The translations under genes and the position numbers were made by a program. Shown here one piece after another: positions 1 through 62,300 of a stretch of 64,000 nt of DNA. Position 1 is the first letter of the stretch. Every line of letters begins with the position of its first letter. Below the pieces are notes generated by a model. The model saw nothing but the letters and a program-made list of their open reading frames with translations. It was not told the origin of the DNA and did no database searches. Source of the stretch: Chiloscyllium plagiosum (taxonomy: Eukaryota); assembly GCF_004010195.1 (NCBI RefSeq), contig NC_057749.1, forward strand, positions 11,820,839 to 11,884,838. The letters are read 5' to 3'.

Positions 1-239
1 CTTTTCCACCTATCCACTCCACCCTCTCCTCCCTGACCTATCACCTTCATCTCCTCCCCCGCTCACCCATTGTACTCTATGCTACTCTCTCCCCACCCCC
101 ACCCTCCCCTAGCTTATCTCTCCACGCTTCAGGCTCTCTGCCTTTATTCCTGCTGAAGGGCTTTTGCCCGAAACATTGATTTCGCTGCTCGTTGGATGCT
201 GCCTGAATTGCTGTGCTCTTCCAGCACCACTGATCCAGA

Positions 240-1320
240 TACCAGTTTATGTGGTATGAAAAATGCACAGCCACATATTAAAGATAAACCAATAAAGTAA
301 CTTTGGAATCACCAAATTGTGTGGTGTACATCAACAATCTGGTGCTTTTTAGGCACATTTGGAGCATGTATCAGAATTGTTTGATCAACTTCAGGAAGCA
401 AGCTTGGTGATAAACCTGGCTAAGACGAGTTCACAAATACCCAAGTCATATTCCTGGGCCACGTTATTAGACATGACAGACGGCTCCATGGGATGTGAAA
501 ACAAAGGTTACCGGGAAGTTGCCCATACCATCACAAAGGAAGCACTATGATTCCTGTGATTGAGTGGTTTTTATCTAAAGTGTTTGTACTGAATTTTAGC
601 AGGGAGGAGAAAGTGAGGATGGCAGATGCTGGAGATCAGAGTCAAGAGTGTAGTGCTGGAAAAGCACGCAAGTCAGACAGCATGCAAGGTGCAGGAGAAT
701 CAATGTTTCAGACATAAGCCCTTCATCAGGAATCCTGGTTCATCAGGGCTTATGCCCAATATGACAATTCTCCTGTTCCTCGGATGCTGTCTGACCTGCT
801 GTGCTTTTCCAGCACTACACTCTCAACACTGAACTTTAGCAGTATGGTTGCTCCACTTACTGACTTGTTGAAGAAGTGCAGAAAATTTCAGACGGCTGAA
901 GAATGTGAAAAGGCATTTGACAGCTTGAAAGCTAGGTTAACCACTGCCCCAGTGTTAGTCACACCTAATTATGCAAAGCCATTCAAGATGGCTATCAATG
1001 CGAGTGATGTGGGCATCAATGCTGTACTCTTGCAAGAGGATGACGAGAAGATAGAAGATCTATTGGGTATTTTTCCAGAAAAATGAACAATCAACAGAAA
1101 TATTCCACACATGAGAATGAGACCTTGAGCTTGGTGTTGGCATTGAAACATTTCAACATTTATATTGTCATTAATGTGTCTGAGAGAATTGTATATACTG
1201 ATCATAACTGCATAATATTTTGGAAAAATGTAAGAATAAAAATTCCAGACTGATTAGACAGAGTTTATTATTGCATCAAATCAATTTGAAAATTATTTCA
1301 CATGGCAGGTACATTGTCGC
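240..1320 (+). mobile_element. Decayed Ty3/Gypsy LTR retrotransposon pol fragment (RT/RNase H)
   Basis: Frameshifted peptides NCVVYINNL, LQEASLVINLAK, FDSLKARLTTAPVL, FKMAINASDVGINAVLLQ; interrupted at 603-827 by a PLE-derived palindrome. Confidence 0.85.
603..827. mobile_element. Short palindromic PLE derivative
   Basis: Inverted arms; TSD ACTGAA(T/C)TTTAGCAG at 588-602 and 828-842. Confidence 0.8.
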
Positions 1321-5726: not shown

Positions 5727-5764
5727 AGTTCTGAGGAAGGGTCACCAGATCTGAAACGTTAACT
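5727..5764 (+). ncRNA. Minimal hammerhead ribozyme motif (third variant)
   Basis: AGTT-CTGAGGA-A-GGGTC-ACCA-GATCT-GAAAC-GTT-AACT, inside an insert with 12-bp TSD ATGCTCTATCAA (5699-5710, 5846-5857). Confidence 0.65.
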
Positions 5765-6113
5765 ATAATTTCTCATCATTGATGTTTTTCTAGCAATTTC
5801 TGTTCTTGTTTCTGATTTACAGCATCTGCAGTTCTTTGGGTTTTAATGCTCTATCAAATCAGGTTTGATTCTGGGGTCTGACTTATCTACTATTACCATC
5901 ATCTGGGGTCATAACAATTGGAAGGTAGTATATGTAACCCCACTATCTAAGAGAGGAGACAGCAAACCAGAAAATATAGGCCTGTTAGCCTAGTATCTGA
6001 TGTTTGGAACATGCTAGAATATTAAAGATGCAAGAACAAAACACTCAGAAGATAAGAGTAGGATTGGACAGAGTCAACATGGATTTATAGAAGGGAAATC
6101 ATGTCCAACAAAC

Positions 6114-6358
6114 AAGAACAGAAGTTGCTGGAAAAAACTCAGCAGATCTGGCAGTATGCGTGCAGAGAAAGCAGAATTAATGTTTAGGGTCCAATGACCT
6201 TTTTCAGAACTGTTCAGACTGTTTCAAAGAAGGGTCACTGGACCTGAAACATTAATTCTGCTTTCTCTCCACACATACTTCCAGATTTGCTGAGTTCTCC
6301 CACAATCTATGATTTTGTTTCTGATTTTCAGCATCCACAGCACTTTGTTTTTTTTTTG
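6114..6358. mobile_element. Short palindromic PLE-like derivative (older subfamily)
   Basis: Inverted arms; flanking repeats TCATGTCCAACAAAC / TCATGTCTGACAAAC. Confidence 0.7.
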
Positions 6359-6940
6359 TTCATGTCTGACAAACCTGTTGCAGTTGTTGTAAGGATGTAA
6401 CTGGCATAAATGATAAATGGGAGTGTGGATGGGAAAACAAGTGGATATGGTACATTCAGATAATCGGAGAGCTTTGATACACAACAGGCTGTTAAATTAG
6501 ACCACATGGGATTAAGGGGAATACACTGGCATAGTTAATGGGCAGTGATAGGGAATATGCAAGCTATTGTACATTGAAATTGCAGAGGGTGGCAAAATCT
6601 CCATCGGATTAATTAAATGAAAGTTACTATCACCAGATAAATTTTCTGCATGCCAGAACAGTCCACAACAGCAAGTAAATTGCTGAGGCAAATTGCTGAT
6701 AATAAAATGCTGTACCAAACATCCAATCACAGTTGGATAACTCAGCTCTGCTGATCGATAGTATACAAAGGGGGTGTGCGCTATGCTCTTGAGCTGTATA
6801 AAAGAAGCTAATTAGAAAACTTTTGCACGCCTTTTTGCTATGAAGATCTGAAGCTGTAACCAACATGTGTCACAATAAAGGTTGCCTGAATCTACCATCA
6901 GCCTCTGACTCTCACAAAGAAATCATGAGATCTTACAATT

Positions 6941-16152: not shown

Positions 16153-17536
16153 TCAGCATGTCAGTGTTCTGTGTAATTTGAATACAAGGGCATCTGAGCA
16201 CACACATAGAGATCAGTGACTTCCAGCATTGGACAGAATAATTTATTATCCAAAGAGGAACTGGATAAATCACTGACAGAGAATTACAAGCAGGTTTCTG
16301 GGGGAGAAGTGAGGCAAGTGACGTATTTGATTGCCTGGGTAGGTGAATAGCCAGTTATCGTGCGTCTGTCTATGCTATGCGTCTGTCCATGCACCATTTC
16401 TACAATGAAATGATCGCATGCATGCACACTTCTTTTGGGTATGGTTTAGGAATCAATAAAACACTCTCAGCCTTTTCACTCGACTCCCACCTGACGGAAC
16501 GGTCACCGAGACAAAAAGAAAGAAGCAGGAAACACATGTTTCAGGAGAGCAAGATTTCAACTGATGTTCTGTTCCCATGCCCCTGCAGAGTTCGTTTAAA
16601 CCCCCCCCAAGAGCACTAGCATTTACTCATGTGCTCTCCATTAAAAGCCTCTCTCACCCACTCCCCATCTCATTACGGTGTCGCTCATCCATGCCCCATC
16701 TCATTATTTCCTCTTGCCATGTTTCCTTTCGCCACCTGTTGCCTGTTCTCATTACAGCATGGTTTGTCCACATCTTGCTTCATTACAGTGAATCTCACAT
16801 GTGCTATCTCATTACAATATCTCCAGTTCTCAATGTTACATTGGTAGCTCCCTCCTGCATCCAATCTCTTTATGGTACTGTTTATCCATGTGGTCTTTTG
16901 TTACAGCCTCTCTTACCCATGCCCTGGCTCACTACAGTTGCAATTCGCTCATGCCTTGGCTCATTACAGCTTTGGCTCAATATAGCTTCTCTCACCCAAG
17001 CGGAGTCTCATTATGGTGCTGCTTTCCATGTGTTGCCTCATAGGAATGTGTCCAAGTTCTACTTTCCATCAGGTGGGAACACATGTTCTATGCATTTAAG
17101 CTGAACCACTGTTATCGTTCTCAAACATTCATGCAGTATAACGTGAATGCTCCACCATATAACCTGCTACTTACAATGCAGTGTTAACAGACTAATAACA
17201 GCAGAAATAATGATAAGAACATATCTATAATAGAGATTTCTGTATCAGTTCTCCCAGTTACCTGCAAGTATTAGCCCTGGCAGAATGAAGGGTATCTTTT
17301 ACAAAGCTGCTTCCCTTCAGGTTTCTTGGCTTGTGCTTGATGCTCTCATGGAGACGGTAAACCACTTTAATCAGAAATTACCAGTAGGAAATTATTGCAC
17401 AATCTAATTTTGTTAATCTTTCACAGTGTTTGGCAACCAGTTGCACTAAAGATGAAATAACTGCTCCTACCTGTTTTGAAGCCTAGAAAGACCAAGAAAT
17501 CATCATCTAGCACACTGTGGCACATGGCCGTCATTA

Positions 17537-19516
17537 GGTGAAAGTGAGGACTGCAGATGCTGGAGATTAGAGATTAGAGTGGTGCTGGATAAGTACAACA
17601 GGTCAGGCAGCATTAGAGGAGCAAGAAAATCTAAGTTTCGGGCAGGAGCCCTTCATCATGAATGAAGCTGGAAGCCTTAGTGGTAGAGACATAAATTGGG
17701 GGGTTGGGCAGGGGGGAGGTAGTTGAGAGTGCAATAGGTGGAGGGAGGAAGGGGTAGAGGTGATAGGTCAGAGAGGAGGTTGGAGCAGGTAGGTGGGAAG
17801 GAAGATTCCTGATGAGTGAGAGAGAGTGAGAGAGAGTGAGAGAGAGTGAGAGAGAGTGAGAGAGAGTGAGAGAGAGTGAGTGAGTGAGTGTGAGTGAATG
17901 AGAGAGACTCACTGAAATCTTTGTAGAGAGAGGAGGAGAACTTCTTCAAAGGTACAAAGTTAAAAATCACACATTATCAATGAGGATGAGCACCTCACCA
18001 AGACCTTCCCCACACCTCCACTATTTGCCTTTAAACAACTGCCAAATCTCAAACAGGTCATTGTTTGTAGCAAGCTGCCTGGCTCTCAGGACAACTCCAT
18101 ACAACCCTGTCACGGTAGATGCTGCAAGACGTGTCAGAGTGTGGACATAGACACCACCATTACGCGTGGGGACACCTCCCACCTTGTTCATGGCAGGTAC
18201 ACATAGAACTCAGCCAACATTGTCTATCTTATACATTGCAGGCAAGGATGCACGGAGGCATGGTACATTGGGGAAACCGAGCAAAGGCTACGACAATGGA
18301 TGAATGGGCACCGCACAACAATCAACAGACAGGAGTATTCCCTCCCAGTTGGGGAACACTACAGTGGTCCAGGATATTCGACCTCGGACTTCGGGTGACC
18401 ATCCTCCAAGGTGGACTTCGGGACAGGCAGCAGAGAAAAGTGGCCGAGCAGAGGCTGATAGCCAAGTTCGGTACCCATAGGGAGGGCCTCAACCGGGACC
18501 TTGGGTTTATGTCACATTACAGGTGACCACACACACACACACACACATATACTTTGTGGGGTGAATTTGTACTTTCAGGATTACATTGTACTTTGCTCAA
18601 AAACTGCATGAATTCATGTAAAACTCCATTATCTCACTTTTTAGATTAAAATCAACCTAAACATCATGGCACAAACAGAAAATACAGGGGGCCAACACCT
18701 TCAACATATTGTCTAGCTATCATCATTGTTAACAGCTAACCCGAGAATGCAACTTTTTAAAAAAAGGTTTTGTGATTTACACATGAAAGAAGTGAAACTA
18801 TCATGGTATTCTAACAGATGAAAGGCTTAACAGACAATCAATTTTTCAATGTATAATTTCAGTTACATCACACTGTAAATTTTTGTTATAAATTCTGTGT
18901 GTTAGGATTGAACCCTCCACTACCACCTGATTAAGGAACGACGCTCCAAAAGGTAGTGTGCTTCCAATTAAACCTGTTGGACTATAACCTGGTGTTGTAT
19001 GATTTTTAACTTTGTACACCTCAGTCCAACACCAGCATCTCCAAATCATGACTTCTTCAAGGTAGGTATCCTTGAAATCCGCTCCACCCTACTTTCCAAC
19101 CTATCACCTTCTAAGCTCTACTCCAATCTCCAGCATCTGCAGTCCTCACTTTCACCTAGTTGATTTCAACTTTACTGCGAATCCTCTTGCAAGGATGCCT
19201 ACCTTGAAGAAGTTCTCCTCCTCTCTATACAAAGATGTCTGTGAGTCTCTCTCTCATCTCTGCCCTGAAGCTCTTTACTTCCTTCCCACCTAACTGCTCC
19301 ACTCTCCTCTCCGACCTATCACCTTCACCCATTCCTCCATCCACCTACTGCACTCTCAACTATCTTTTCCCCAGCCCCACCCCTCCCATTTATTTTCTCC
19401 ACCCCCAAGGCTTCCAGCCTCATTCCTGATGAAGGGCTGCTGCCCGAAATATTGATTTTCCTGCTCCTCGGATGCTGCCTGACCTGTTGTGCTCTTCCAG
19501 TACCACTCTAATCTCT
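17537..19516. mobile_element. Palindromic PLE-derived element containing a nested Penelope GIY-YIG fragment (~17955-19050)
   Basis: Inverted arms; 15-bp TSD-like repeats ACATGGCCGTCATTA (17522-17536) / ACATGGCCATCACTA (19517-19531); inner fragment encodes WYIGETEQRLRQWMNGHR. Confidence 0.8.
17811..17908. repeat. (GAGAGAGTGA)n microsatellite
   Basis: Directly visible. Confidence 0.95.
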
Positions 19517-20029
19517 ACATGGCCATCACTACCCGGTGCACATACATCACCGAAAATTTCCATAATTAAATTGTAAAAGCTCCTTGATAACTTAATCTTA
19601 AATCAAAAATCGCTGACTGAGTAACAAAGGATTACAGAAACATATTTTAATCAAGGTTTCAAGTCTCAAAATTTGACCTGACAATTCAGGATATCAATGA
19701 AAATTCCTCAAACATCCCCAGGTGGGCTCCAGGAATACACAAGCCTCAACGCCTGTAACCAAGCCCAAACACAGGACCAGATTCCTCATCTTCCGTCTCG
19801 GAACACTTCAACTCCAGGGCATCAATGTGGACTTCAACAGTTTCTTCATTTCCCCTTCCCCCACCTCACCCCAGTTCCAAACTTTTTTACTGCTCCTCGG
19901 ATGCTGCCTGAACTGCTGTGCTTTTCCAGCACCATTCTAATCTAGACACCAGCTTAAAATGTGTCAATTTCCTGTTCACTCGCGTTTTGGCGGTGCTACA
20001 AAAAGGTTTTGGAAGGCGCTTTTTGGGGA

Positions 20030-23990: not shown

Positions 23991-24419
23991 CCATAAGACC
24001 ATAAGACATAGGAGCGGAAGTAAGGTCATTCGGCCCATTGAGTCCACTCCGCCATTCAATCATGGCTGATGGGCATTTCAACTCCACTTACCCGCATTCT
24101 CCCCGTAGCCCTTAATTCCTTTTGAACTCTACCATTTGACCTCTACTATTCTTACAGATAACTGAGATCTCTTTATAAATTTGTTCTCGATATCCCACTC
24201 GACTACTGCAGGGTCTATAGTACAATCCCAAAAAGATGATCATCCATTTTTTTTTCTTTCAAAGTTCCACCAAATAACTTAATGGACATATTTCCCAGAA
24301 TATCCTCCAAGTACAGCCATAATGTTATCCCTAACCAAAGATGCCACTCCTCTTACTTTCTTGCCACCCCCCCGCCCTTTCCATTGTTCCTAGTGCATCT
24401 ATAGCCAAGAATATAGAGC

Positions 24420-30128: not shown

Positions 30129-30296
30129 GGAGAAAATGAGGACTGCGGATGCTGGAGATCAGAGTCGAAAGTGTGGTGCTGGCCCTTCATCAAGAAATCC
30201 TGATGAAAAGCTTATACAGTCCTCGAAACGTCGATTCTCCTGCTCCTTCGATACTGCCTGAGCGTCTGTGCTTTTCCAGCACCACACTCTCGACTC
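30129..30296. mobile_element. Short palindromic PLE derivative
   Basis: Inverted arms; TSD-like TGCATAATAATAATG / TGTATAATATTAATG. Confidence 0.75.
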
Positions 30297-34845: not shown

Positions 34846-35474
34846 ATCAGCTTGTCTTCTCTCCATGGATGTTGCCTGACCCACTGATATCTCCAGCACT
34901 TTTTGTTTCCAGTTCAGATTCCAGCATCTGCAGTAGTTTGCTCCTAGTTAAATTTTATTCCCAACAGCATTTGTATTTTTTAAACAGTTTATCTCCACTT
35001 CCTAATTTTATTTATCACCAAATTATCACCAAAGAGTTTCTGAATCAAACTCATCACTGTTAATTCCAAACAGTAAAAATGTGAAAGTGCTGGTGTTGGA
35101 CTGGGGTGGACAAAATTAAAAATCACATGACACCAGGTTATTGCCCAATAGGTTTATTTGGAAGTACAAGCTTTCAGAACATTTCGTCAGGCAGCTAGTA
35201 GAGTAGGATCATAGGACACAGAATTTATAGCAAAAGATCATAGTGTCATACATTGATGCAATATATTGAACAAACCTAGAATGCTACTAAGTCTTTCATC
35301 TTTTAGAATGGGTTGCAGGTTTTGATTCATTAATATGTAAATCCCAGAACTACTTTCAAGTCACATTCCTGAGATAACTTAAGATTTTATATAAAAAAGT
35401 GACATCTCATCTCAGACAATGCATTAAGGGTGTGAGGTGAGAGTCTGAATGTATTCCAATCTTGAGTCAGACTG

Positions 35475-43200: not shown

Positions 43201-46200
43201 AGTGAAAGTCTTTGTAGTACCTCCTGGATCAACGTTTCTGTTAGGTTTGTCGATTTTCCCCAGGTACTGTCAGCAAACATTTGTGAAGTTAGAGCCAGTT
43301 GTTTGTGCCATACAGCATGGTGTGACTAGCAACTAATCGTTTGGAACATTTTAACTGTGAATATTGGTGCCTAATTGCACAGGCAGCTTGTGCATACCAA
43401 GTATGATTTATTCACATTTCAACTGCTGGAGTGCCACCAATACAAAATTTAAATCAAACATAAAATAACAGCAAATTAGATTAACAGTACAGGTAGTTCT
43501 CCTATGATACTGTAATTGCATTCCCAAGCAACACTGTGTTATAGAAAATCATGCAATAGAAATAATGGGGCTATGGCGAGAAACAGGATTGGAGCAAACC
43601 ACCAAAAATGAGTAAAAATCTAAACAAAAGTAGTAGTTTGCCTAACCCAAACAATAGCACAATCTAAGTAAATTTTGAGCTGTTGTACTGTATAGTGCAG
43701 TTCATCAGAATCTTCAACTGATTGGCATTTACACCTGCTGGCTGCACTGCATTCTCAGCGATCTTCAGATCCCATCCAATAATAACACTGCACAAGTCAG
43801 ATCCAGAATGAAACCTCCCTTGATAGATCATGGGCTGAATCTTAATTTCTTTCACTAGGTGTCAGTTTGTCAAGTATTTTGGAGGGTTTCACAAAGTCTA
43901 TCAACTTATTTTACAAAACCTGCTTGATTTATTACCTACCCTGCCCTTTGGTGCTCCTCTCTCACACTCTAGCACCATCATCCCATGTGCCATTACCAAA
44001 ACAACTGACCACTTCCTGGATATCCCAGAATTGACCAACATGCGTGGTGCACCCAGACAAGAGCTGTCAGTCCGGAGCTGCCCTGCATGGTTTCTGACAT
44101 TGGCCCTAGATGTGGCAGACAGTGGAAAATTCATGCCTCTCTTTGTGAGCCTGGAGATGCTGCTCCTGGGGATGGGGTGATACAGAGTCAGGTATCTCCC
44201 AGACCAACAGAGGATGCCATTCTACTGAAACCATGCCAACCTGGATCAGGATAACTGTCCAGGCTAGTGCAGTCTCGATCAACTGAAGGAATGCATAGAA
44301 TGTAGAAAGAAGATCAATGATCTTCTCCACTCGGCCAATGAATTGCCACCATCTTCTCTTTCATACCTCATGCTCACACACTCACTCTCTCTTTCTCTAC
44401 TATTGTACCCACTATTTCCTGTAACATCTTCCCTGCTCACTCTCATCCTCGCTACCAACTGACCCTGACTAACCCTGAATCTCTTCTTCGCAGCCTACTT
44501 GCTCACTGTGCAGTGTTTCCTGAGTCTGACCACCCTGAGCAGCTGACTGACCATGTCCAAGCCCCTGTACTGGTATTATTTTGCAGTTGGTTATCATAAT
44601 GATTAGTCACTGAAACAAGATTCACCTGAGTCTACAGATATTCTTTAACATCTAAACATATTTTTTAAACAAAAAAAAATTAAAAAGCTCTTCATACAAA
44701 CAACAAAGCCAAGTTTCAAGCTACCCCTCAACACTCCTTTTACTGTTAGTCAATTCAAGTGAAATTTTAACTCTCAAATCTCAACTCAAGTTTTTAGATT
44801 AACAGGATGCTCCCAGCTTCTTGTCCTCGGGCTGTAGAAACATTTTCACAATGCTTTTTCAAGTCCACTAGCGCAAACATTTCATAATACCTTTCACAAA
44901 GCTCTTTATGAGAAATGCACAAGCCAACTGATTATGTGATACCAACACAGAGTTCAGTCTTGCGCACACTGTGACACCTAGTGCTGGGAATGAGAAATGT
45001 GTTAACAGCAAACAAGACAGGGGACGAAACGTTTGCAACAAAAACTTCCAGCTCGGCGAACAGAACCACAGCAGCAAACAAGAGTTTGCTTTATTAAAAA
45101 AAAGTTGGCAATTCACAAATCATGTTACAGATAAATCACTTTTAATAAACATGCATTATAGGAGAACTACCTGTACAACAATGTGGAAAACACAAACTGA
45201 AAATGTAAATAATAGAATAAATTAATAAAATTTCAAGAATGGAAGTGGAGTTTTTGAAGTGGGATTAATGTTTCACATATATGTAAAATTTATGATGAAG
45301 TATGCTTTAAATGCTGCAGTTGCCCAAGTAAACATTGACGTTTCTCATCCTGAGATGTGGGTGGCATGTTTGTGTAATTAATTCAAAATATGACACTTAA
45401 TTTGCAAGAGCAGAGAGATGGAGAAAGTGTTCATAGAGCTGTTCAAAATTATCAACAGGACAGCAAAAACCAATACAAATTAAATTATTTCATTTGTCAG
45501 AAAATCAAAGGTGAGCCCATTGCTGGAAAGGAATGTTTTGTTATGTGGCTGACATTTGGTGTAATAATTTAATACTCCTTGCTGTAGTTAAAGATGAGGT
45601 AAGAAGAAAGGAAAATGCAAATGTGGAAAATTAGTCCAGAGAGAAGCCTATATGTTTAGGGATAAAATATCTGTCCACCAATCAGAAATATCAAAATCCT
45701 TAGCGAGTTTTGAGAAGATTTGTAGCTCGGGTTGAGGTTTTGGATGTGGGTTTGCTCGCTGAGCTGAAAGGTTCATTTCCAGACGTTTCGTTACCTTACT
45801 AGGTAACATCTTCTGTGGACCTAAGGTGAAGCAATGCTGAATATCAAAATCCTAGAACAAGTATTAGGGGGACTAGTGGGCCAGTGAGAGTGTGAAGGAA
45901 GGAATATGGTCCACAAACAGAACAGTTTGACAGGACTTGGAGCTGTGACAGGAGATTCCCCTCCCAAATGTTCAGTCCCACTTTGCTTTGTGGATTCATA
46001 TGTATGTTCAGCATTTTCTGCTTCAACTAAGATTGATGAGATGAATATTTGGAATTGGTACATTTAGTCTCCTTCGAACAATCAATTTTCCACAATGTTG
46101 TTCCTGAATGATTTACAGCCATGGGATAATTGGTTGGGTTTGGTTCTCTGCACTGTTTTCTTTTATAAGTTCTTAATTGGCAACTATTTAATGTACAGCG

Positions 46201-49200: not shown

Positions 49201-51421
49201 TCCACAGATTCTGCCAAACCTTTTGAGTTCCTTCAGCATTCTCTTAATTCATGTCATTCAATTTGTATCCATTCACGCTCAAAATCTCTGTACAGCAGTT
49301 TCAGAGAAGCACTTAGAGTCATAGAGATGTACAGCATGGAAACTGACCCTTCGGTCCAACCCGTCCATGACGACCAGATATCCCAACCCAATCTAGTCCC
49401 ACCTGTCAGCACCCGGCCCATATCCCTTCTGACAGAAAATACACAGCAGTTCTGTCACCATCTGAGAGAAAAGATAGTTTAATTTTATGATTGAGTCATT
49501 GTATAGAGCAAGCCGCAAGGCTGCAGTTGAAGAACAAAGCAGTTTCTGCCCAGTTTGTTGAAGAACAAAGGTTTCCAGCATCTGCAGTCATTGTTTTTAC
49601 CTCATTGTATAGAGGCCATCTGAATGGCAAGGAGAAAGTGAGGTCTGCAGATGCTGGAGATCAAAGTTGAAACTTTATTGCTGGAACAGCACAGCAGGTC
49701 AGGCAGCATCCAGGGAACAGGAGATTCGACGTTTCGGGCACAGGCCCTTCTTCAGGAATGAGCAGAGAGTGTTCAGCAGGAGAAGATAAAAGGTAGGGAG
49801 GAGGGACTTGGAGGAGGGGAGTTGGAAATGTGATAGGTGGAAAGAGGTCAAGGTGAGGGTGATAGGTCGGAGTAGGACGGAGGCGGAGAGGTCAAGAAGA
49901 AGACTGCAGAAGACTGCAAGAAATCTAGGGAACAGAAGATTCGACGTTTCGGGCACATGCCCTTCTTCAGGAATGAGCAGAGAGTGTTCAGCAGGAGAAG
50001 ATAAAAGGTAGGGAGGAGGGACTTGGAGGAGGGGAGTTGGAAGTGGAGGAGATGCGGTGGAGGGCACCGTCGACCACGTCGCCTTCCTGACCTGCAGTCT
50101 TCTTGTTGACCTCTCCGCCTCCATCCTACTCCGACCTATCACCCTCACCTTGACCTCTTTCCACCTATCACATTTCCAACGCCCCTCCTCCAAGTCCCTC
50201 CTCCCTACCTTTTATCTTCTCCTGCTGAACACTCTCTGCTCATTCCTGAAGAAGGGCCTGTGCCCGAAACGTCGAATCTCCTGTTCCCTGGATGCTGCCT
50301 GACCTGCTGTGCTGTTCCAGCAATAAAGTTTCAACATCTGAATGGCAAGCCTATCCTTTTTGACTTGTGTGTTTCCAACATTCTCTCTCATGCTTGGTTC
50401 AATTCAATTATATCATATCTCTTTGTAGTACCTCTAAGTTTTGTATATATCTTATCACTTCAAAGTCTGTGAGAAGATTTGTACCTCGGGTGCTCGTTGT
50501 TGTGGTTCTGTTCGCCGAGCTGGGGTTGCAGATGTTTCGTCCCCTGTCTAGGTGACATCCTCAGTGCTTAGGAGCCTCCTGTGAAGCGCCTCTGTGATCT
50601 TTCCTCCGGCATTTGTAGTGGTTTGAATCTGCCGCTTGCGGTTGTCAGTTCCAGCTGTCCGCTGCAGTGGCCGGTATATTGAGTCCAGGTCAATGTGCAT
50701 ATTGATTGAATCTGTGGATGAGTGCCATGCCTCTAGGAATTCTGAACAGCCAGGGAATTCCTAGAGGCATGGCACTCATCCACAGATTCAATCAATAAGC
50801 ACATCAATCTGGACCCAATATACCGGCCACTGCAACGGACAGTTGGAACTGACAACCGGAAGCGACAAATTCAAACCACTACAAATGCCGGAGGAAAGAT
50901 CACAGAAGCGCTTCACAGGAGGCTCCTAAGCACTGAGGATGTCACCTAGACAGGGGACGAAACATCTGCAACACAAATTTCCAGCTCGGCGAACAGAACC
51001 ATAACATATCTTCTCACTTAATGATCATTTACCATGTTATCTACTTTAGTAAAGTCTCTCCTTTTGATACTGCCTGAAACATCAGTACCCCAAAAAGAGC
51101 CCCCAGTTTATTGCAGTAGATTTTATATGCAGCACTGTGGAGAATTTTGTAATCTTCTTGCCTTTGATTTCCCATATAATTCACTATATTGCAGGGGTGG
51201 TGTCAGAAAGCTAAAATTTCTATTATAAAAGTGAATTTCTACCTAATTTTTTGTTTTTAACCATTTAAAAGGATGAAGGGAAAGACAAAACTCTACGCTC
51301 GTCAAAGGCCTTTTTCTCCCAGTTACAAGATCAAGTAAAAGCTGATCTGAGAGGAGCCAAGATGAAAGCCAACAAGCAAAACAAACAAAGAGCTCTATCG
51401 ACAAGCAAGCTGAAACTTTAA
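37145..51421 (+). CDS. MPHOSPH10: U3 snoRNP protein MPP10 (whole gene span, 11 visible coding exons; 5' part of exon 2 lost in assembly gap)
   Basis: From exon 2 onward the exons join in frame with GT-AG sites: 37145-37212, <37715-38088, 39133-39281, 40031-40199, 42652-42793, 43130-43197, 46243-46380, 47191-47301, 48128-48235, 48612-48842, 51272-51421. Diagnostic peptides: [73 protein letters not shown]-terminal SKLKL*. Confidence 0.96.
37215..37714. other. Assembly gap (500 N)
   Basis: Run of N. Confidence 1.
37715..38088 (+). CDS. MPHOSPH10: MPHOSPH10 exon 2 (3' part; 5' end in gap)
   Basis: Open acidic frame NEFTKQ...[12 protein letters not shown]...[15 protein letters not shown]...KRK, donor AAG|GTAACA. 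Confidence 0.92.
39133..39281 (+). CDS. MPHOSPH10: MPHOSPH10 exon 3
   Basis: [16 protein letters not shown]...; acceptor ttgtttgaag, donor GA|GTATGT. Confidence 0.9.
40031..40199 (+). CDS. MPHOSPH10: MPHOSPH10 exon 4
   Basis: ...KVRFNLPDD...[10 protein letters not shown]; phase matches exon 3. Confidence 0.9.
40380..42010 (-). mobile_element. CR1 LINE ORF2 fragment (MPHOSPH10 intron 4)
   Basis: [40 protein letters not shown]. Confidence 0.9.
42652..42793 (+). CDS. MPHOSPH10: MPHOSPH10 exon 5
   Basis: [47 protein letters not shown]; donor GTAAGC. Confidence 0.95.
43130..43197 (+). CDS. MPHOSPH10: MPHOSPH10 exon 6
   Basis: [23 protein letters not shown]. Confidence 0.95.
46243..46380 (+). 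CDS. MPHOSPH10: MPHOSPH10 exon 7
   Basis: [46 protein letters not shown]. Confidence 0.95.
47191..47301 (+). CDS. MPHOSPH10: MPHOSPH10 exon 8
   Basis: [37 protein letters not shown]; donor GTGAGT. Confidence 0.93.
48128..48235 (+). CDS. MPHOSPH10: MPHOSPH10 exon 9
   Basis: [36 protein letters not shown]. Confidence 0.95.
48612..48842 (+). CDS. MPHOSPH10: MPHOSPH10 exon 10
   Basis: [27 protein letters not shown]...GKATLLK. Confidence 0.95.
49724..49759 (-). ncRNA. Minimal hammerhead ribozyme motif
   Basis: Exact reverse complement of 50242-50277. Confidence 0.8.
49939..49974 (-). ncRNA. Minimal hammerhead ribozyme motif
   Basis: Tandem second copy on the - strand, core intact. Confidence 0.75.
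50242..50277 (+). ncRNA. Minimal type I hammerhead ribozyme motif
   Basis: ATTC-CTGAAGA-A-GGGC-CTGT-GCCC-GAAAC-GTC-GAAT: stem I ATTC/GAAT, intact core, stem II GGGC/GCCC, predicted cleavage after C50273. Confidence 0.8.
50461..51005. mobile_element. Second palindromic PLE 3'-end element in MPHOSPH10 intron 10
   Basis: Inverted arms meet near 50745; TSD ATATCTT(A/C)TCACTT at 50447-50460 and 51006-51019. Confidence 0.88.
51272..51421 (+). CDS. MPHOSPH10: MPHOSPH10 exon 11 (terminal)
   Basis: [23 protein letters not shown]...SKLKL, TAA at 51419-51421. Confidence 0.95.
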   Translation, partial: DEGKDKTLRSSKAFFSQLQDQVKADLRGAKMKANKQNKQRALSTSKLKL

Positions 51422-51665: not shown

Positions 51666-52103
51666 ATGGCTCAGTGGTTAGCACTGCTGCCTCACAGCAC
51701 CAGACACCTAGGTTCAATTCTGGCCTCGGGCAACTGTCTGTGTGGAGTTTGCACATTCTCCCTGCGTCTGTGTGGGTTTCCTCTGGGTGCTCCGGTTTTC
51801 TCTCACAGTCCAAAGATGTGCAGGTCAGGTGAATTGGCCTTGCTAAATTGCCCACAGTGTTAGGTGCATTAGTCAGAGGGAAATGGATCTGGGTGGGTTA
51901 CTTTTTGAAGAAGGGCTTATGCCCGAAACGTCGATTCTCCTGTTCCCTGGATGCTGCCTGACCTGCTGCGCTTTTCCAGCAACAAATTTCCAGCTCTGAT
52001 CTCCAGCATCTGCAGACCTCACTTTCTCCTTACTTTTTGAAGGGTCAGTGTGGACTTGTTGGGCTGAAGGGCCTGTTTCCACCCTGTAGGGAATCTAATC
52101 TAG
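51666..52103 (+). mobile_element. tRNA-derived SINE with a nested PLE-end insertion (51911-52029)
   Basis: SINE head and tail flank an insert bounded by the 13-bp direct repeat TTACTTTTTGAAG (51898-51910, 52030-52042). Confidence 0.85.
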
Positions 52104-52699: not shown

Positions 52700-52881
52700 T
52701 CAATGCAAATGTTTATTGGGCTGTTTCTGATTTGGTTTTAATGCTGGGTCACCAGAGAAATGCCATTAGGCTCCTGCACCTTGACCATGGGCCAATTCTT
52801 GAAATCTGATTGGTTGGCGCAGCGAAGATCCGGGACCAGGCTGTGATTGGTCGCCCCGCTGGAGGTGGGACCTCCGCCGTC
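52700..52881 (+). promoter_or_regulatory. Putative FAN1 proximal promoter with CCAAT boxes
   Basis: ATTGG/CCAAT at 52715, 52792, 52809 and 52846, plus a GC-box-like cgccccgc near 52852, just upstream of the CpG-rich first exon. Confidence 0.6.
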
Positions 52882-53341: not shown

Positions 53342-56300
53342 GTGATTAGACAGAGGCACTGAGCTGGCAGTAAATTGTGGCCAAGTCCATTCGAGCAGCT
53401 TCCGCTGGTCTCAGGAGAGCAGAGCACTGACTGATCCAGACCAGGTGGAGTGGTCAGGTCTCCCAAGGCTCAATGTGTTGTATGAATAGAACTAGAGCCT
53501 GTCTCTGACTCAGGAGTCATCGTGGGGGTGGTGGAACCTACTTCACCTAGAATTCTTTGAGATTTGACAGGAAGCACACTTGCTGCTTTTTTTTTGTGGA
53601 GAACAATCAACAACAACATCCCTTCGTACCACTCCAGAGCCAAAGGATCTTGGTTGTTGTGTTATTGGAATCATAATTCAAATGTCTTGAGCAGGGAGGG
53701 GAAGATGTTCTTGGTGATAGGGTCTAGTTGGATTTGGCAGAAGTGTTTAAGGATGGTGCATTGGATGCAGAGACTGTTGCAGTGGTAGGTGAGGATGAGG
53801 GAGACTGTCTTTATTGCATTGGGCGGGGCTTAGAGCAATGGAACGGGGAAATGTAGATGGTGCAATGGAGGGCTGTCTGGATGACAGATGGAGGCGAAGC
53901 ACATTACGCAAAATAGGTAGACGTGGGATGCTGGCGAGTGGACTGCCTCTTCATCAGAGCAGATGCAGTAGGGGCAGAGGAATTGGGAGAATGGGGTGGA
54001 GTTCTTGTAGGATACTGGGAAGGAGGTGTACTCCAGGCAGTTATGTGAGGATGTGGGCTTGTAGTAAATGTCCATCTGGAGGCTGTCACCAGAGATGGAA
54101 ATTGGAGGAACAACCCCTGCTACTTGGGCAGTCTACAGCCTGGAGGACTCAACATTCACTTCTCCAATTTCAAATAACCTCCCTTCCCACCCCCTCCCCA
54201 ACTCTTCCACAACTCCCTGCCACCAATTGGATTCATTCCTCCTATTGACCAAGCAGATTATACCCTCTACCTGTCTTCACCTATCCCCACTTCACCACTA
54301 TGCCACTGCCACCCCTTTTATCTGCAGCTCCTCCCACACCCACCCCTCAGGCTTACACCCAAAATGTCAACTTTTCCACCTCCTGATGCTGCCTGGCTTG
54401 CTGTGTATTTCTAGCCTTCTGCCTGTCTCTCCTTATTTGGTCTGGCCTAAGTGGGGAGAAACATTTAAAAGGGATCTAAGGGTCAACCTTTTCACACAGA
54501 GGGTGGTGGATATATGAAATGAGCTGTCAGAGGAAGTGGTGGAGGCTGGTACAATTACAACATTTAAAAGGCATCTGGATGTGTATATGAATAGGAAGGG
54601 TTTCAAAGGGTATGGGCCAAATGTTGGCAAATGGGACTAGATTAATTTAGGTTATCTGGTTGGCATGGACGAGTTGCACTGAAAGGTCTGTTTCTGTGCT
54701 GTACATCTCTATGACTCTAAATGTGCCTCTGGACGCATGGCAATGTGGTTGACCCTTAAGTTTGGGCAATAAATGCTGGCCTAGCCAGTGATGTCCTCCT
54801 ACATGAAAGTAACAAAAAAGTAAAAACCGGCAGCTGACATAAAAGAATGTCCTTAACTCATATTACTGTTTACTTGCTCTACTTACTGAGTGCTTCATTT
54901 TATCCACAGTTACTGGCCAAAAGCTCTATGTGCGACTCTTTCAACGGAAGCTGAATTGGTTGAAAGTGACTAAACTGAATTATCCTGATATTGGTATGGA
55001 TCTGACCCCCACCATTGAGGAACTGAGCCTTGCAGGCTTGTTACTGACAGGTATGGGCTCCCAAAGGGAGGGTAGATTTTAATCAGTAAATTGAAGATAG
55101 CTGTGTTACTGAATATAGAATCCTTTTCCATCTCCATGACTCCAGCATGCGGAGACCCTCACCCATTCATGTGGCCACCATCTTAGACTTTCTGGGACTT
55201 TCTACCCTGCACCTGACAAACTTTCTCAAAACTCAACCTTTGGTAAATTTCTTCCATTCACTCAGTGTCTGCAGCAAAAGTGTGGTGCTGGAAAAGCACA
55301 GCAGGTCAGGTAGCATCCAAGGGAACAGGAGAATTGGCATTTTGGGCATACGCCCTTCATCAGGAAAGGGCCTGCTTCTTTATTTGATCTGTTACTAACC
55401 TTTGCCACTCTCCAGTAAAATCTTACGGCCTTTTGCTGTTCTTCAGATGCTGTGCCATATATATCTGAAACCAATGGTGTCACTGCAGTAAACATTCAAT
55501 TTGGGCTAGGCTCAGGGTCCTGGGGGAGGCAGCAACTGTCCCTTATTTATATTGTTTATCCCCCATTCCCCAGGCATTCCTGGCCCATACTATTCTGGGT
55601 CCCAGTGTGTTATACACTGACAATGATCTTTTCACCTTCCCAGAGTCAGATTTATGCAATGTCTCAGAGGCCCTGAACCTGCTATCTGCTCCTGAACTCA
55701 AACTAATGGCGAGAAGCTTCCACCTGCGATCCCAGGGTCAGAGGGCAGAAATATTGGAGTCTCTGCTACATTTGGCCAAGCAACAATCAATCTTCAGCTG
55801 CAGTCAGAAGCCATCAAGTCCTGGCCTCGCCATTCTCAACAGGTCTTTCAAAAGACACCATTTAACTTTGTACCAGCTGCATGTTAGAGCAGAGTGGAGC
55901 CCATGCCCCAGTGAGGGGGGAGGGGGCAAGCAAAAGCAATAGGATGGGGGTGTCTCTGCTCCAGGGAGGGATAAAGCAATGGGGAAGTGAATCGGGTCCA
56001 GGAGGTTGAGGGATTTGGGTTGTAGAGGAGGGCAAAGGCAAAGTTTCTAATTGTGGGAGGTTTTTGGACTGGGACAGTGTGCAGACTCTTGACGGGTAGC
56101 AGTTGGGGAGGAGCTACATGATAACTGATGGTAATGTCAATGCTGTGGGGCCTGTGTGCTTTCTTTGCTCTTTAAGGTCAGTACATTCAATGAAAAGTAG
56201 AATAAGCACTAAGGAACGAAAGTATGAGCTGATAAAAGTTGAAGAAAGCTGAGACAAGGTTGATGTGGAGCATAAACAGAGACCAGTTAGCTGAAATGAC

Positions 56301-59300
56301 TTTGTACAGGACATTGGTGAGGCCACTTTTAGCATACTACACTCTGGTCTCTCTGCTCAAGGAAAGATGTTGTTAAACTTGAAAGGTTTCAGAAAAGATT
56401 TGCAAGGATGTTCCTGAGATTAGAGAGTTTGAGCTATAGGGAGAAGCTGAATAGGCTGAGGGTAGTGTGTATGGAATGAGCTGCCAGAGGAAATGGTGGA
56501 GGTGGGTACAATTACAATATTAAAAGGCATCTGGATGGGTATATAAATAGGAATGGTTTAAGGGATATGGGCCAAATGCTGGCAAATTGGACTAGATCAG
56601 TTTAGGATATCTGGTTGGTGCGAACAAGTTGGATCGAAGGCTCTTTTTCCATACTGTAGAACTCTATGACTGTGTACTTAAAATTTAAATCCTGCCTAAC
56701 TCAATGGCTTTTGTTTAACAACGATGTGTGTTGTCAGGGTGAAGAAGATGGTCGGAAATTGTGTGAAAATTGCTGCTCCAGCCCGTGCTGTGTTCTCACG
56801 GCTATTACTACTTTTCAATCTGACGGACTGCACAGATGAAGAGGAAGCTTCCTGTGCTGGCCAGAATCAGCTGTCCACTGTGCTCATGGTCAACATGGGT
56901 CATGTCACCTTCCCTAGTTACACTGTGCTGAGGGAGAAGAAAATATTCCAGCACAGAGATGACCTGCTCAGGTGATGCCACATCTTGATCCACTCTAACT
57001 GCAGCATCCATACAGTTAATGGCAAACCCACCCAAGCTAGGAATTGCTTCTATGTCTAGCCAGATCAATTATAGGCGGAATAAGTAGAGGGGTTGGACAT
57101 GTAGTTGAGTGGATGGGTGTTAGGGTGTGCAAAGCTCCCCGTGACGGTTGCACAGCATTATGCTGATTGTGATTTTGACTTCCAATGTAGAATTACTACT
57201 CTATATTCTATTCAAACACTTTTCTGACTGGCACAGTCAGTTTACTCCATCATAGACTCCATGTCCAAAGGTGTATCATCTGCTCCCTAATAGGTGTGTT
57301 GACTGTCTTTGATAGATATAATGAAGCCGTGCATTCTCTGGCCGAGGTAATCACCGCGATGACCAGTGGGTTTTGGAGTGATGCTCTCCAGATTTGTAAA
57401 ACCGCCAAGGAGAAATGGAGCCAGCTGGAGAACAACAGTGACATCAGGTAATGAGCAGGAGTGCACAGTGTGGGGACTATCTCCTGGCCAGCAGTTTCAT
57501 GGGAACAACACATTCTTTCTTGTTAGTACTGCACCCCCCCCAAATCTCTAATTCAGCAAATATCCCTAGAGTATTTCACAAGGACAACAGAGAGAGCATA
57601 ATGTAAGAAACAGAAGAAGTGAAGAGAAAGTGTGACATAAGAATTACCAAATATCAAGTGAAAACAGCAATCCGAGGAAAGGCTGGAGTTTGAAGTGTGA
57701 GGGTATATGTTTCGTGAGACAGTATGGCAAGTTGCCAAGCTAGAGTTGGGTTGAGGTCATTGTTAGTACAGATTTTGAATTCAGTATGGTGTGTAGATGG
57801 CTGAATGTAGTGCAAAATCATTAGCAAGCAGTACAAGTTTGGATAACTCGCATCACACAGTTCTAGGACAGGTATAGCATAGGGTTAGATACAGAATAAA
57901 ACTTATTCTAGTCTTTTAAACTAAAAGTAAAGCTGTCTCTACATTGACCTCATCGATTACTTCCAGAACAGGGATAGCATAGGCTTACACATAGAGCACT
58001 CTCATTAAAGTAAAAATGCCTTTACTCTTTTAAACTGAAAGTAAATCTCCCTCTACATTGACTCCATGAAACACTCCCAGGCAGGGACAACATGGGGTTA
58101 GATGTAGAGTAATGCTCCTTCTACTCCTTTTAACTGAAATTAAAGCAGTCAGCAATGTCACCATAAAACACTCCAGGACAGGGACAGCATAAAGCTCGGT
58201 ACAGAGTTAAGATCCATCTAATCTTTCAAAAAAGAAAGTAAAGCTCTCTGTCCTTTACACTGCCCCATCAAACACTCCCAGGACCAAGACAGTACATATT
58301 AGGTACAGAGTACAGCTCACTCTACACTGTCATGTTAATATTCATACTTCCTGCCCCAGTATATATTTTTATTCTCCTTACTGTACCTGTCTGTGAATCT
58401 GGATCCTGCAGTGAATGAGTCGACTGACCAAAGTCTGCAATAGCAAACTGCGATGTTTGAAACCCGAACCACAAAGAAAAATCCAGAACCTTGGTGTTTT
58501 AGTCAAACTGAATGTTCAGGTGTTTACTTGGTAAGCGTTTCTTTTTCATCTTACAGTAAGTGACAAATGTTCCTTAATTTTAGGTTTCACCAGCAGCTCC
58601 CAGTGTATCTGCGACGTTTCACTGCAGGCTGGGTCTACACACGGATCAAAACCTATGGGGTTGAAATTTTACAACGACTGCACATGTATGAGGTAAAGAA
58701 ATGTAGAAGTTTGATAAGACCATAGTAATTCAATAAGACCATAGTAATTTCCTGAAGAAGGGCTAATGCCCGAAACGTCGATTCTCCTGTTCCCTAGATG
58801 CTGCCTGACCTGCTGCGCTTTTCCAGCAACACATTTCCATCTCTGATCTCCAGCATCTGCAGACCTCATTTTCTCTTCATAGTAATTCAATGCCAAGAAC
58901 ATCAATCTAGCTGCTCCCCAACCCAAGCTGTTCCAGTATTGTTACAACACTGGCATGTACCCAACAATGTTGGAAAGTTGTCCAAGCATATACTGTACAT
59001 AAAAAGCAGGACAAATCCAACCCAGCTAATTACTGCCCAATCAGTCTACTCTGGATCATCAGGAGGATGATGGAAAATGTCATCAAGAGTGCTAACAAGT
59101 AGCACCTTTCAGCATGGCGGGGTAGTGGACAGCCAAGAAGGCTACCTCAGTGTACAACGGGATTTGAGCAGATGGGCCGAGGAGTGGCAGATGGAGTTTA
59201 ATTTAGATAAATCTGAGGTGCTACATTTTGATAGGGCAGGCATGGTACCATACATCAAGAACATCTCTGAACTGACAGCCAGACTACTGCGACCACTAGG

Positions 59301-62300
59301 ACTTATAACAGCACACAAACCAACAGCCACGCTCGGACAACAACTCACCAAAACGAAGGACCCGATACCCAGCATGAGCAAAACTAATGTAGTGTACAAA
59401 ATCCCATGCAAGGACTGCACAAAACACTATATAGGACAAACAGGAAGACAGCTAGCGATCCGCATCCACAAACATCAACTAGCCACAAAACGACACGACC
59501 AGCTATCCCTAGTAGCCACACACGCAGACGACAAGCAACATGAATTTGACTGGGACAACACTACCATTATAGGGCAAGCGAAACAAAGAACAGCCAGGGA
59601 ATTCCTAGAAGCTTGGCACTCATCCACAAACTCCATCAACAAACACATCGACCTGGACCCAATATACCGGCCACTACAGCGGACAGCTGAAACTAACAAC
59701 CGGAAGCGGCAGGGACAGGCCACTATAAACACCGGAGGAAACACCACAGAAGCGCTTCACAGGAGGCTCCCAAGCACTGAGGATGTCACCTAGACAGGGG
59801 ACGAAACGTTTGCAACAAAAACTTCCAGCTCGGCGAACAGAACCACAGCAAAATCATGAGGGGCATAGATAGAGTGAATAGCCAAGGTCTTTTCCACAGG
59901 GTAGCAGAGTCCCAAAGTAGAGGAAATGGGTTTAAGTTGTGTGGGGAAAGATTTAAAAGGAACCTTAAGCAACTTTTTTATGCAGAGGGTGGTGCGTGTA
60001 TGGAATGAGCTGCCAGAGGAAGTGGTGAAGGCTAATACAATTAGAACATTTAGAAGCATCAGGATGGATATATGAATAGGAAAGGTTTAGATGGAAATGG
60101 GCCAAATGCTGGCAAATGGGACTAGATTAATCTGTAGGGATTCTAAGATTAGGATATCTGTTCGGCATGGACGAGTTGGACTGAAGGGTCTGTTTCCATG
60201 CTGTACATCTCTGATTCTATAAGCTGCTCCGTGACATCAGTATGGGTTCCATCTGGGCCACTCAGCCTTTGTTCAAATATGGACAAAAGAGCTGAGTTCT
60301 AGAGGTGAGACTGCGAGCCCTTGATGTCAGGGCTGCATTCCATCATCCACAACACACAAGTCAGGAATGTGATGGAATACTTCGTAGCACGTGATGAGTG
60401 CAGCTCTAACAACATTCAAGAACCTTGACACCATCCAGGACAAAGCAGCCGCTTGATTGGCACTACATCCACAAACATTCACTCCCTCCACCACTGACGC
60501 TCAATAGCAGCAGTGTGTACTATCTACAAGATGCACTGCAGAAATTCACGAAAGATCCTCAGACAGACTCCAAACCTGTAATCACTTTCATCTATATAAT
60601 AGACAATAGGTGCAGGAGTAGGCCATTCAGCCCTTCGAACCTGCACCGCCTTTCAATATGATCATGGATGATCATTCCTAATCAGTATCCTGTTCCTGCC
60701 TTATCTCCATAACCCTTGATTCCACTATCTTTAAGAGCTCTATCCAACTCTTTCTTAAATGAATCCAGAGACTGGGCCTCTACTTCCCTCTGGGGCAGAG
60801 CATTCCACACAGCCACCACTCTCTGGGTGAAGAAGTTTCTCCTCATCTCTGTAGGGCATCTAGAAGAACAAAGCAGTAGATACATAGGAGTGTACTCAAT
60901 GGGCCAAATGGCCTTACTTCCACTCCTATGTCTTATGGTCTTATAGGAATACCATCACCTACAAGTTCCTCTCCAAGCCAGTCACCACCCTGACTTGGAA
61001 ATATGTCACTGTCCTTTCACGGTCGCTGGGTCAGAATCTTGGATTTCTCTCCCCAATGGCATTATGGGTCGACTCACAGCAGGTGGATTGCAGCAGTTCA
61101 AAGGGGCAACCAGGGGTGGACAATAAATGCTGGCTGGCCAGCAATGCCCACATCCCACAAATCATTTTTTATTTTTAAAATTAACTGCAAGGCCTAGGTA
61201 TCTTATGTGGGCCTTCAGAATTGGAAACAGTGGCATTGGTTGGTTTAGTTTAACTTAATTAATCTAATATAGTGATTGAAGCTGCTGATACCATTATGTT
61301 TTGAATCCTGTTCTCAGGAAGCAGTGGAGGAACTGCAAAATCTTTTGGAACAAAGCATCTATTGTCCAAGCAGCCGTGGCTACTGGTGGAATCGACTGAG
61401 TCTGAATCTCCATCAGCATCTGAAGCAGACTGATCAAGTAATTGAGATTGCTTTAAAGTTATGATGTTTGATATCTTTGCCAACTACTTGTATACATGAG
61501 CATGTTGCTATGACCGGACAGACCCTAGTTCTAATTGCTGTATGACAAGATATCCATCTTATCTTTCACACAGTGGTGGGAATTGAACCCAATGCTCCAA
61601 TTCTGGTGTGCTTTACTACATAATAAAGTTTTGATAACTAACTAGGGTCGGTAACCTGGTTGAGAAATGTTGAAGTTTTAAATAGGCAGTGAAAGTTGAT
61701 TTGTACTCAGCTGACTAATGATCTCCTCAGATTATTCTGTTACAATGGTTTCTTCATATGATTTTGGCTTCCAGGCAATCCACTGTTTGCGGAAAGGATT
61801 GGATGATGTCTCAGTTCACATGGGCCATCGGCTGGCTTTATATCAGCGTGCAGTACGGATTCGTGACTCCCCAAGCTACAAGAAATGGCATCACCTTCTT
61901 CAGAATCTGCCAGTAGTGAGAGTACAGGATGTGCCACATGTGAGTGTCTCTAAGGAAGTCACAGCTCCAAGTTATTGACCCACTTTCTTTGTCTTCGTCT
62001 GACATAAATAGTTTGTTGAAATCATTTTATTGATTTGTGTTATTTCCATGAAATTGTGAGCAAAGGCCTGACTAGGTATTGGTGCAAAACCAATACAAAA
62101 TCTGACCCTCCATTGTAAGATGCAATAACAACTGCTGCTTCATTTCACAAGGAAACTAGATCTCCTTCCTCCCCCTAGCCTGGTAGAGGATTGGTCCCAG
62201 TTTGCTGAGCTCCACTCCTGAAATCACTGACACTAGCTGGATATCTGACCACAAATGCCAGTTACTTGGCCACCTGCCCCACGTAATTGTTTACAAGAAT

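Follow-up and report, generated by a model that had tools for sequence, protein, structure and literature searches.

The hammerhead motif of Penelope-like elements (PLEs), its mass occurrence as single truncated copies and its low activity were described in 2014 (PMC4209133). For the Anolis carolinensis element PAc, in vitro work has described nicking and extension of both target strands from two internal start sites (PMC11167929). It also describes uncleaved RNA as the substrate, a protein-assisted ribozyme and a predicted dimer (PMC11167929). The Neptune clade of PLEs is marked by a Cys-rich, zinc-finger-like linker between reverse transcriptase (RT) and endonuclease (EN) (PMC8557442), and hammerhead-bearing retrozymes reach up to 120,000 copies in axolotl (PMC7229834; bioRxiv 10.64898/2026.07.22.740005). 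Here we analysed a 64,000-nt stretch of contig NC_057749.1 of the shark Chiloscyllium plagiosum (the window) and searched its 3.56 Gb genome. Our main reading, to which we give a probability of roughly 0.8, is that hammerheads of PLE terminal repeats (pLTRs) have been left by the hundred thousand as 5'-truncated copies, and that the joints between these copies are accounted for by twin priming.

Hammerhead motifs in the window and the genome

An earlier note on the window had listed 17 sites at which a hammerhead pattern recurs, and hammerhead-derived sequence was present at all 17 (minus-strand positions in that list are the low ends of the motifs). A BLAST catalogue built with natural copies contains 29 hammerhead loci in the 64 kb. 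The loci beyond the original list lie at 729-, 735+, 4626+, 6208-, 6224+, 19855+, 28271-, 34818+, 35196-, 45000+, 54341+ and 55363-, several of them being tail remnants only. Core, both stems and palindrome are kept together at 5 of the 17 sites (cores 5731+, 49755-, 49970-, 50246+ and 59777+), and the CUGANGA box is broken or truncated at sites 146, 17634, 18923, 45779 and 51905.

We defined a strict motif as an exact CUGANGA and GAAA-NN-UH with no fewer than 3 bp in each of stems I and II. The window holds eight, compared with none in 20 shuffles, and 1 Mb of contig C1 (91 kb of it N) holds 35, compared with a shuffle mean of 0.2. A density of one motif per 4 kb had been claimed; it stands for remnants, whereas strict motifs occur once per 8 kb in the window. 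Genome-wide, in counts that impose no stem requirement, the exact core occurs about 221,000 times, or about once per 16 kb, compared with about 2,200 times in controls. These were 168,816 cores with GAAACGTH (control 1,854) and 52,210 with GAAAGCTH (control 347). A single family-A pattern matched 88,166 times and a family B pattern 16,003 times, each with a control of 0. Rfam at gathering thresholds gave no match for the window motifs. The unusually dense hammerhead set, found in a cartilaginous fish, is mostly a gain in annotation, the motif class being already known.

Fold and families

As read from the sequence, the motifs are PLE-type minimal type I hammerheads with the CUGANGA / GAAA / NUH core, and we recognise at least five families (A, B, C, D/P and E) where at least four had been proposed. 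The proposal that stems differ between families yet still pair was borne out by a permutation of 3' strands across 7 lineages, with pairing at 21/21 stem I positions (P=2e-4) and 26/28 stem II positions (P=1.6e-3). Each lineage was represented by one natural copy, and an eighth, A2, was omitted because it is closely related to A1. These lineages, chosen as motif bearers, are related to one another and not fully independent. The perfectly paired stem I ATTC/GAAT, listed earlier, belongs to subfamily A1 only; in the most frequent family-A types this stem reads ATTC/GATT and contains a U-U mismatch. Helix II is short, at 4-5 bp, in Neptune-type motifs.

The extra nucleotide after A9 reported earlier was found in 45 of 48 strict motifs. 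In the same 48, the palindromic positions 15.2-16.2 read CG in 26 and GC in 10, and the decay products CA and TG in six each. Save for such CpG decay products, helix III is ACGT or AGCT. The loopless ACGT palindrome given earlier is not universal, as 18923 belongs to a family with AGCT in its intact copies. Folding z-scores for motif plus tail were unremarkable (-1.9 to +0.9). In family A, 12 columns were flagged as subfamily-polymorphic, including N7 and loop II (one of them, -13, is in fact invariant), and none was a conserved core base. Because subfamily variation avoids the conserved core bases, it points to selection on the parent elements.

A C-type subfamily with a U3-A8 core has 1,283 exact copies (control 0). 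By manual count, the first 100 listed matches to its pattern comprise 92 with U3-A8, 8 with C3-A8 and none with G8. Copies of this subfamily at five loci (L223, L225, L228, L229 and L231) have a self-complementary stem I, AGCT/AGCT. A generic U3-A8 search returned 3,900 matches, below its control of 4,580, and only the family-specific pattern is informative. We also rejected a family with A/T in helix III (22,695 matches, control 8,590), as the family-like matches among those listed were products of double CpG decay.

The motifs lie in terminal repeats of Penelope-like elements

Judged by the reading frames that adjoin them, the motifs, most clearly those of families A, B and E, sit in the pLTRs of Neptune-type and Poseidon-type PLEs, and the motif-bearing pieces read as 5'-truncated copies of autonomous elements. 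The earlier note had assigned them to non-autonomous retroelements. This assignment was not supported: upstream of the motif the ends run on into sequence coding for RT/GIY-YIG, every copy has a 5' junction of its own, most inverted pairs carry a target-site duplication, and copies terminate at PLE tail sites.

In family A the motif lies 3' of RT, Cys linker and GIY-YIG. At one family-A locus an EN end precedes a pLTR, which is followed by an open N-terminus of 378 residues, then a gap and, about 3.8 kb on, another pLTR; together they form a partial tandem EN-pLTR-ORF-pLTR (ORF, open reading frame) with assembly gaps. The family E motif follows a similar broken frame at 18.0-18.5 kb. In family B the motif stands at the end of a GIY-YIG-type frame whose stop codon is inside loop II, and an ATG at the start of stem II appears to open a frame running through the tail. 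Translations of families A and E have a Cys cluster ahead of the endonuclease motif; the labels Neptune-type and Poseidon-type are probable clade assignments, based on this linker and on a PAc-like layout. Family C has a downstream module in common with family A, as well as inverted pairs, and family D resembles family B; no ORF was traced for C or D/P.

Pfam matched RVT_1 in element frames (E=2.8e-7 and 5.9e-9) and GIY-YIG only weakly, below the cut-off (E=0.017-0.089), while full-length relatives carry both domains. At E 0.01 Pfam missed all PLE fragments in the window, and a PDB sequence search with the RT fragment gave no match. The closest named homologues of the RT are from carpet sharks and rays. 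Taken together, the layout is that of EN-bearing (EN+) PLEs: a pLTR partial tandem, an inverted 5'-truncated copy, a 30-40 bp tail and a target duplication.

Two further arrangements were observed in family A. At L198:9590-10000 and at window positions 19140-19520, a pLTR and ORF start are joined directly to the 3' untranslated region, and these copies are internally deleted partial tandems. At L178:7582-7700 an ATG lies 18 nt past the cut site, in frame with the long ORF in A2-type copies and one base out of frame in A3-type copies.

Head-to-head pairs combine one long and one short 3' end

We found that the 3' ends of families A, B and E fall in two peaks 38-40 nt apart, the difference being referred to as the tail. 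In an unbiased sample the ratio of long to short ends was 132:112 for A, 9:10 for B and 26:29 for E. Head-to-head neighbours within 3 kb numbered 131, and 85 of these had a detectable duplication, mostly of 10-18 bp. Among duplication-bounded pairs that could be classified, 82/83 paired a long arm with a short one, as did 107/124 classifiable pairs when no duplication was required. Many of the B and E pairs were fetched from pattern listings, and were picked by position, not by tail type. If two independent RNAs picked start sites at random, half of the pairs should join like with like, which was not seen. The pairs in the window, and the intact hammerhead within one of them, are as follows.

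49630..50335, both strands: family A1 (Neptune-type) inverted insertion (I1, 244 nt, 99%) with a target-site duplication of about 14 bp; a long-tailed arm with minus core 49755, a second, partial copy with minus core 49970 and a short-tailed arm with plus core 50246.
50242..50277, plus strand: intact minimal hammerhead with stem I ATTC/GAAT, CUGAAGA, an extra A and stem II GGGC/GCCC, GAAACGUC; predicted to be cut after 50273.
50456..51007, both strands: family B (Poseidon-type) inverted insertion, long arm with minus core 50564 and short arm with plus core 50933, the short arm extending about 18 nt further 5'; helix III CpG-decayed in both arms, duplication about 14-16 bp.
17536..19520, both strands: family A2 inverted unit, long arm with minus core 17659 and short arm with plus core 19426, each of them decayed; the unit has a duplication of about 15 bp and contains a family E copy nested within it.
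600..835, both strands: decayed family A inverted pair, cores 729- and 735+, absent from the earlier list.
6100..6360, both strands: decayed family C inverted pair, 6208- and 6224+, absent from the earlier list.
30128..30298, both strands: family A fold-back junction, both core boxes at 30200, stems broken.

We then asked which arm reaches further upstream. Of 67 mapped pairs, 29 have a short arm that extends further 5', 27 have a long arm that does so, and 11 are tied. Alignment artefacts make up one of the 29 and three of the tied pairs, and two pairs seem to be duplicates. Where a short arm has extra upstream sequence and its long partner has the tail, neither can be a copy of the other, so both must have had an RNA-sense template. 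About half of the resolved pairs are thus non-nested, which argues for two RNA-templated priming events. The arms within a pair were no more alike than an arm and its best relative (17/67 pairs); as likeness within pairs is not raised, neither a shared template nor gene conversion is shown. Pair junctions have short overlaps or inserts.

Family-A copies often begin at stem I

To place 5' ends we used 210 unbiased family-A copies with identity of at least 85%. Ends at -5 to -2 from C3 accounted for 46 of the 210, with a peak on the A and T of ATTC, compared with 13 in the 20 positions upstream of this pile-up. A further 62 ends lay within the motif and 52 at -30 or beyond; the other 27 lay either at -28 or downstream of +30, the latter including some mis-assigned C-type relatives. 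Sequence upstream of the printed 5' junctions was unrelated or inverted. Strand-switch joints in public reads and contigs fell on the same bases as the pile-up; only such joints were used, because loose ends are confounded by upstream subfamily divergence or by the reference's own truncation. Family E showed a broader cluster, from -9 to +1, and four of five printed loci of the U3-A8 subfamily begin a few bases from stem I.

If the fold stalled RT, synthesis should stop 3' of the fold; the pile-up is thus more simply read as a fixed 5' end of the RNA. The pyrimidine-A step at this position resembles the initiator consensus, and from it we infer a probable transcription start at stem I. Two other candidates were set aside: a 3' splice site at the pile-up, as no AG precedes it, and copies beginning at the cleavage site as a record of cutting, as the cut site shows only a small bump.

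Single family-A copies decay at the background rate

We measured decay in 127 in-register family-A copies out of 146, chosen via a downstream anchor. Non-CpG core positions were changed in 100 of 1,270 cases (7.9%) and control positions in 201 of 2,540 (7.9%; P=1.0). CpG positions were changed in 14-24%, in agreement with the decay at CpG noticed earlier, and core plus palindrome were retained in 52 of the 127 copies. We conclude that single family-A copies are not protected by selection and decay at the background rate. Truncated copies, where tested, were likely dead on arrival. A reading of the genome as seeded with working ribozymes is not supported: family-A cores decay as fast as controls, and the head-to-head pairs place two motifs on opposite strands.

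RNA reads came from one polyA single-cell run, of which about 2% was read. Two family stretches were covered by 2,451 and 2,741 reads in both directions, and 93-95% of these continue into unlike sequence. No pile-up of molecule ends was found at the cut site in this insensitive test. These reads fit passive transcription of many copies within host RNAs and have little bearing on cleavage.

Proposed mechanism and alternative explanations

In the account we favour, the element protein, probably a dimer, would nick both target strands about 14 bp apart, and one complementary DNA (cDNA) would be primed per strand from two internal start sites of an RNA with an uncleaved hammerhead. The two cDNAs would stop independently and then be joined head to head. 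In family A, more loosely in E, and in the C-type subfamily, many cDNAs would run to the end of an RNA whose 5' end is fixed at the first stem I base, a likely transcription start. The ribozyme probably acts for the parent element only, aided by its protein or a partner RNA, and may cut or decap the transcript; production of the template would not need it. We advance a stricter version tentatively, as possible rather than probable: twin priming would be obligate, with an RT dimer on one uncleaved RNA and starts 38-40 nt apart, and the Neptune-type hammerhead would be the 5' end of the transcript and decap or silence its own mRNA.

Several results weigh against this account. Two RNAs with fixed roles would yield an identical pattern of pairs, the nesting test dropped 41 pairs for unexplained spacers or low identity, and 85 of 113 young solo copies have no detectable duplication. 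Family B shows no 5' pile-up at the hammerhead, and an extra G at the family-A pile-up was not significant (15/49 ends, compared with 23/130 others). Ten of the 210 family-A 5' ends fall within 2 positions of the cut site, three exactly on it, which leaves room for a minor cleaved fraction. Finally, we recovered no gap-free full-length element, and the long open frames that were fetched are mostly assembly gaps.

The inverted units could instead have formed by snap-back, in which a cDNA folds on itself and is copied, the 5' pile-up marking a stop on completion of the stem I mirror. Self-priming has been proposed for PLE palindromes (PMC3846280), junctions do have short overlaps or inserts, and the pile-up coincides with the end of stem I. 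Yet 29 of 56 resolved pairs, one of them an artefact, have upstream sequence in the short arm that is absent from the tail-bearing long arm, so that snap-back as the sole route is largely refuted and we consider this explanation very unlikely. It is also improbable, if somewhat less so, that the short copies form a true non-autonomous family, SINE-like (short interspersed element-like) or retrozyme-like, with its own internal promoter at stem I and mobilised by PLE protein. A fixed 5' edge on an initiator-like pyrimidine-A step, combined with two fixed 3' ends, would give many copies of near-equal size. Penelope has an internal promoter (PMC2377424), and a 2026 preprint derives animal retrozymes from pLTRs (bioRxiv 10.64898/2026.07.22.740005). 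However, stub sequences match ORF-bearing subfamilies, the minimal PAc template needs ORF sequence to +172, past the ends of the stubs (PMC11167929), the window holds no tandem array of hammerhead units, and the motifs are without a canonical helix III loop.

A third possibility is that dispersed copies are active ribozymes in host transcripts, as dimers in trans or in tandem, and affect pre-mRNA. The roughly 221,000 exact cores, the intronic copies of MPHOSPH10 and FAN1 that lie in sense and keep an intact core, the intact copies at 49755 and 49970, which share a strand and are 215 nt apart, and the family reads in RNA would all suit it. We nevertheless regard it as extremely unlikely. Core decay equals control decay; read starts and ends show no pile-up at the cut site, although this is a weak test; the predicted A1 hammerhead dimer (-14.3 kcal/mol) is less stable than other folds (-19.5 kcal/mol); and published monomers were uncleaved and dimers barely cleaved (PMC4209133).

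Under the stricter version, shark genomes would hold more than 100,000 fossil records of the reaction. The junctions give sharp predictions: that the RNA has its 5' end fixed at stem I, that templates are uncleaved and that each start site primes once. The value lies in sample size, and bears on the role of PLE hammerheads and on how inverted units form (PMC8557442, PMC11167929).

Other loci and surroundings

The other PLE copies catalogued in the window are listed below.

59248..59850, plus strand: 5'-truncated family B copy in a FAN1 intron, with a GIY-YIG-type coding end, its stop codon in loop II of the hammerhead, intact core 59777 and short tail.
58749..58875, plus strand: solo family A stub in a FAN1 intron; it begins at the edge of stem I and has core 58752 and a long tail.
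51905..52030, plus strand: solo family A stub, truncated within CUGANGA, with a long tail and a duplication on either side.
17960..19052, plus strand: family E (Neptune-type) 3' end with decayed hammerhead 18927 (AGCT-type family), long tail and a broken Cys-linker/GIY-YIG-like frame (no Pfam match; domain label from motif reading).
5727..5845, plus strand: family C stub whose core (5731) is intact; stem I is AGTT/AACT, and stem II has a G-U pair at its base.
146..231, plus strand: family A2 copy with a broken core, in which A6 is changed and helix III has decayed.
34075..34840, plus strand: older 3' end of family B with a remnant of coding sequence; core at 34768, stem I lost and helix III decayed.
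35105..35249, minus strand: family E stub, AGCT helix III, core near 35190, absent from the earlier list.
35675..35937, plus strand: family B2 copy, core 35864, helix III decayed.
45015..45073, plus strand: family B stub truncated inside stem II, in an MPHOSPH10 intron.
45747..45820, minus strand: family D copy, stem II GTTACCT/AGGTAAC, U4 changed, in an MPHOSPH10 intron.
55286..55371, minus strand: decayed family A copy, core 55363, absent from the earlier list.
24417..25990, plus strand: Neptune-type RT-linker-GIY-YIG fragment of the family A parent element, broken, hammerhead end missing.

Within the endonuclease region of the last fragment, 25679-25754 is a perfect 38-bp tandem duplication. 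The two intact A1 hammerheads on the minus strand at 49630-50045, 215 nt apart and antisense to MPHOSPH10, are a candidate natural tandem dimer.

MPHOSPH10 (37019-51420) and FAN1 (52800-64000) lie in tandem on the plus strand, where Pfam places their exons at 37.7-48.9 kb and 54.8-64 kb, respectively. The A1 insertion at 49630..50335 falls between Mpp10-matching exons and the putative last MPHOSPH10 exon, which we take, by its resemblance, to lie near 51.3-51.4 kb. The first coding stretch of MPHOSPH10 is followed by a gap of 500 N (37215-37714), and a GC-rich tandem repeat (52949-53200) lies near the presumed start of FAN1. Broken long terminal repeat retrotransposon fragments occur at 718-1083 and 11004-11411 (Pfam RT RNase H-like and integrase). 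Minus-strand fragments of long interspersed elements lie at 36029-36529, 40486-40926, 41596-42264 and 52174-52653; they have no Pfam match and presumably resemble CR1. An abundant repeat of up to about 200 bp, which we assume to be SINE-like, is present at 2165-2377, 7930-8096, 9345-9552, 15905-16024 and 51667-51865. A degenerate repeat with 69-bp periodicity spans 14197-14799 and has one related copy at 57851.

Comparison with known systems

The motif, the extra base after A9 and the palindrome were published in 2014 and are not new (PMC4209133). As described by Cervera and de la Pena, the hammerheads here have a loopless palindromic helix III, an extra nucleotide between 9 and 10.1, G10.1-C11.1, a short helix I, compensatory changes between families and a U3-A8 variant (PMC4209133). 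As there, most are single motifs from truncated PLEs, and close pairs lie on opposite strands (PMC4209133). The C. plagiosum set differs in the short Neptune-type helix II and in number: about 221,000 cores here, where about 9,000 are given for Xenopus tropicalis and 4,000 for coelacanth, although the descriptors differ and the counts are not strictly comparable (PMC4209133). The supplements of a 2026 preprint include one chondrichthyan, which may bear on how new these counts are (bioRxiv 10.64898/2026.07.22.740005). No shark is named in the Results and Discussion text of that article or in two of its supplements. A search by title and abstract opening, with subscription papers outside its coverage, found no report on a shark and no twin-priming account of PLEs.

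Animal non-LTR retrozymes likewise have type I hammerheads in high-copy repeats of PLE-holding genomes. They differ in being arrayed in tandem as units of 150-450 bp, with canonical hammerheads and with circular RNAs (PMC7229834; bioRxiv 10.64898/2026.07.22.740005), unlike the dispersed or inverted single minimal motifs found here. Our array search, limited to the window, found no tandem units with a canonical hammerhead.

The insertions share several features with the EN+ PLE unit described by Craig et al. 2021 (PMC8557442) and Arkhipova et al. 2013 (PMC3846280): 5' truncation, partial tandems, an adjacent inverted truncated copy, a 30-40 bp tail often at one end, and target duplications. The duplications are mostly 12-16 bp here compared with 8-10 in rotifer, the tail asymmetry is here counted (82/83 pairs), and the non-nested arms argue against the self-priming model (PMC8557442, PMC3846280).

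Family B resembles PAc (Frangieh et al. 2024; PMC11167929), whose behaviour was assayed, whereas the C. plagiosum elements are known here from their sequences. The one-long-one-short rule and the 5' pile-up have no mention in the portions of that article available to us. In both elements an ATG stands at the start of stem II (PMC11167929). The cut site lies 28 nt past this ATG in family B and 26 in PAc, and the long end lies about 110 nt into the frame in family B, where PAc reverse transcription starts at 111-118 (PMC11167929).

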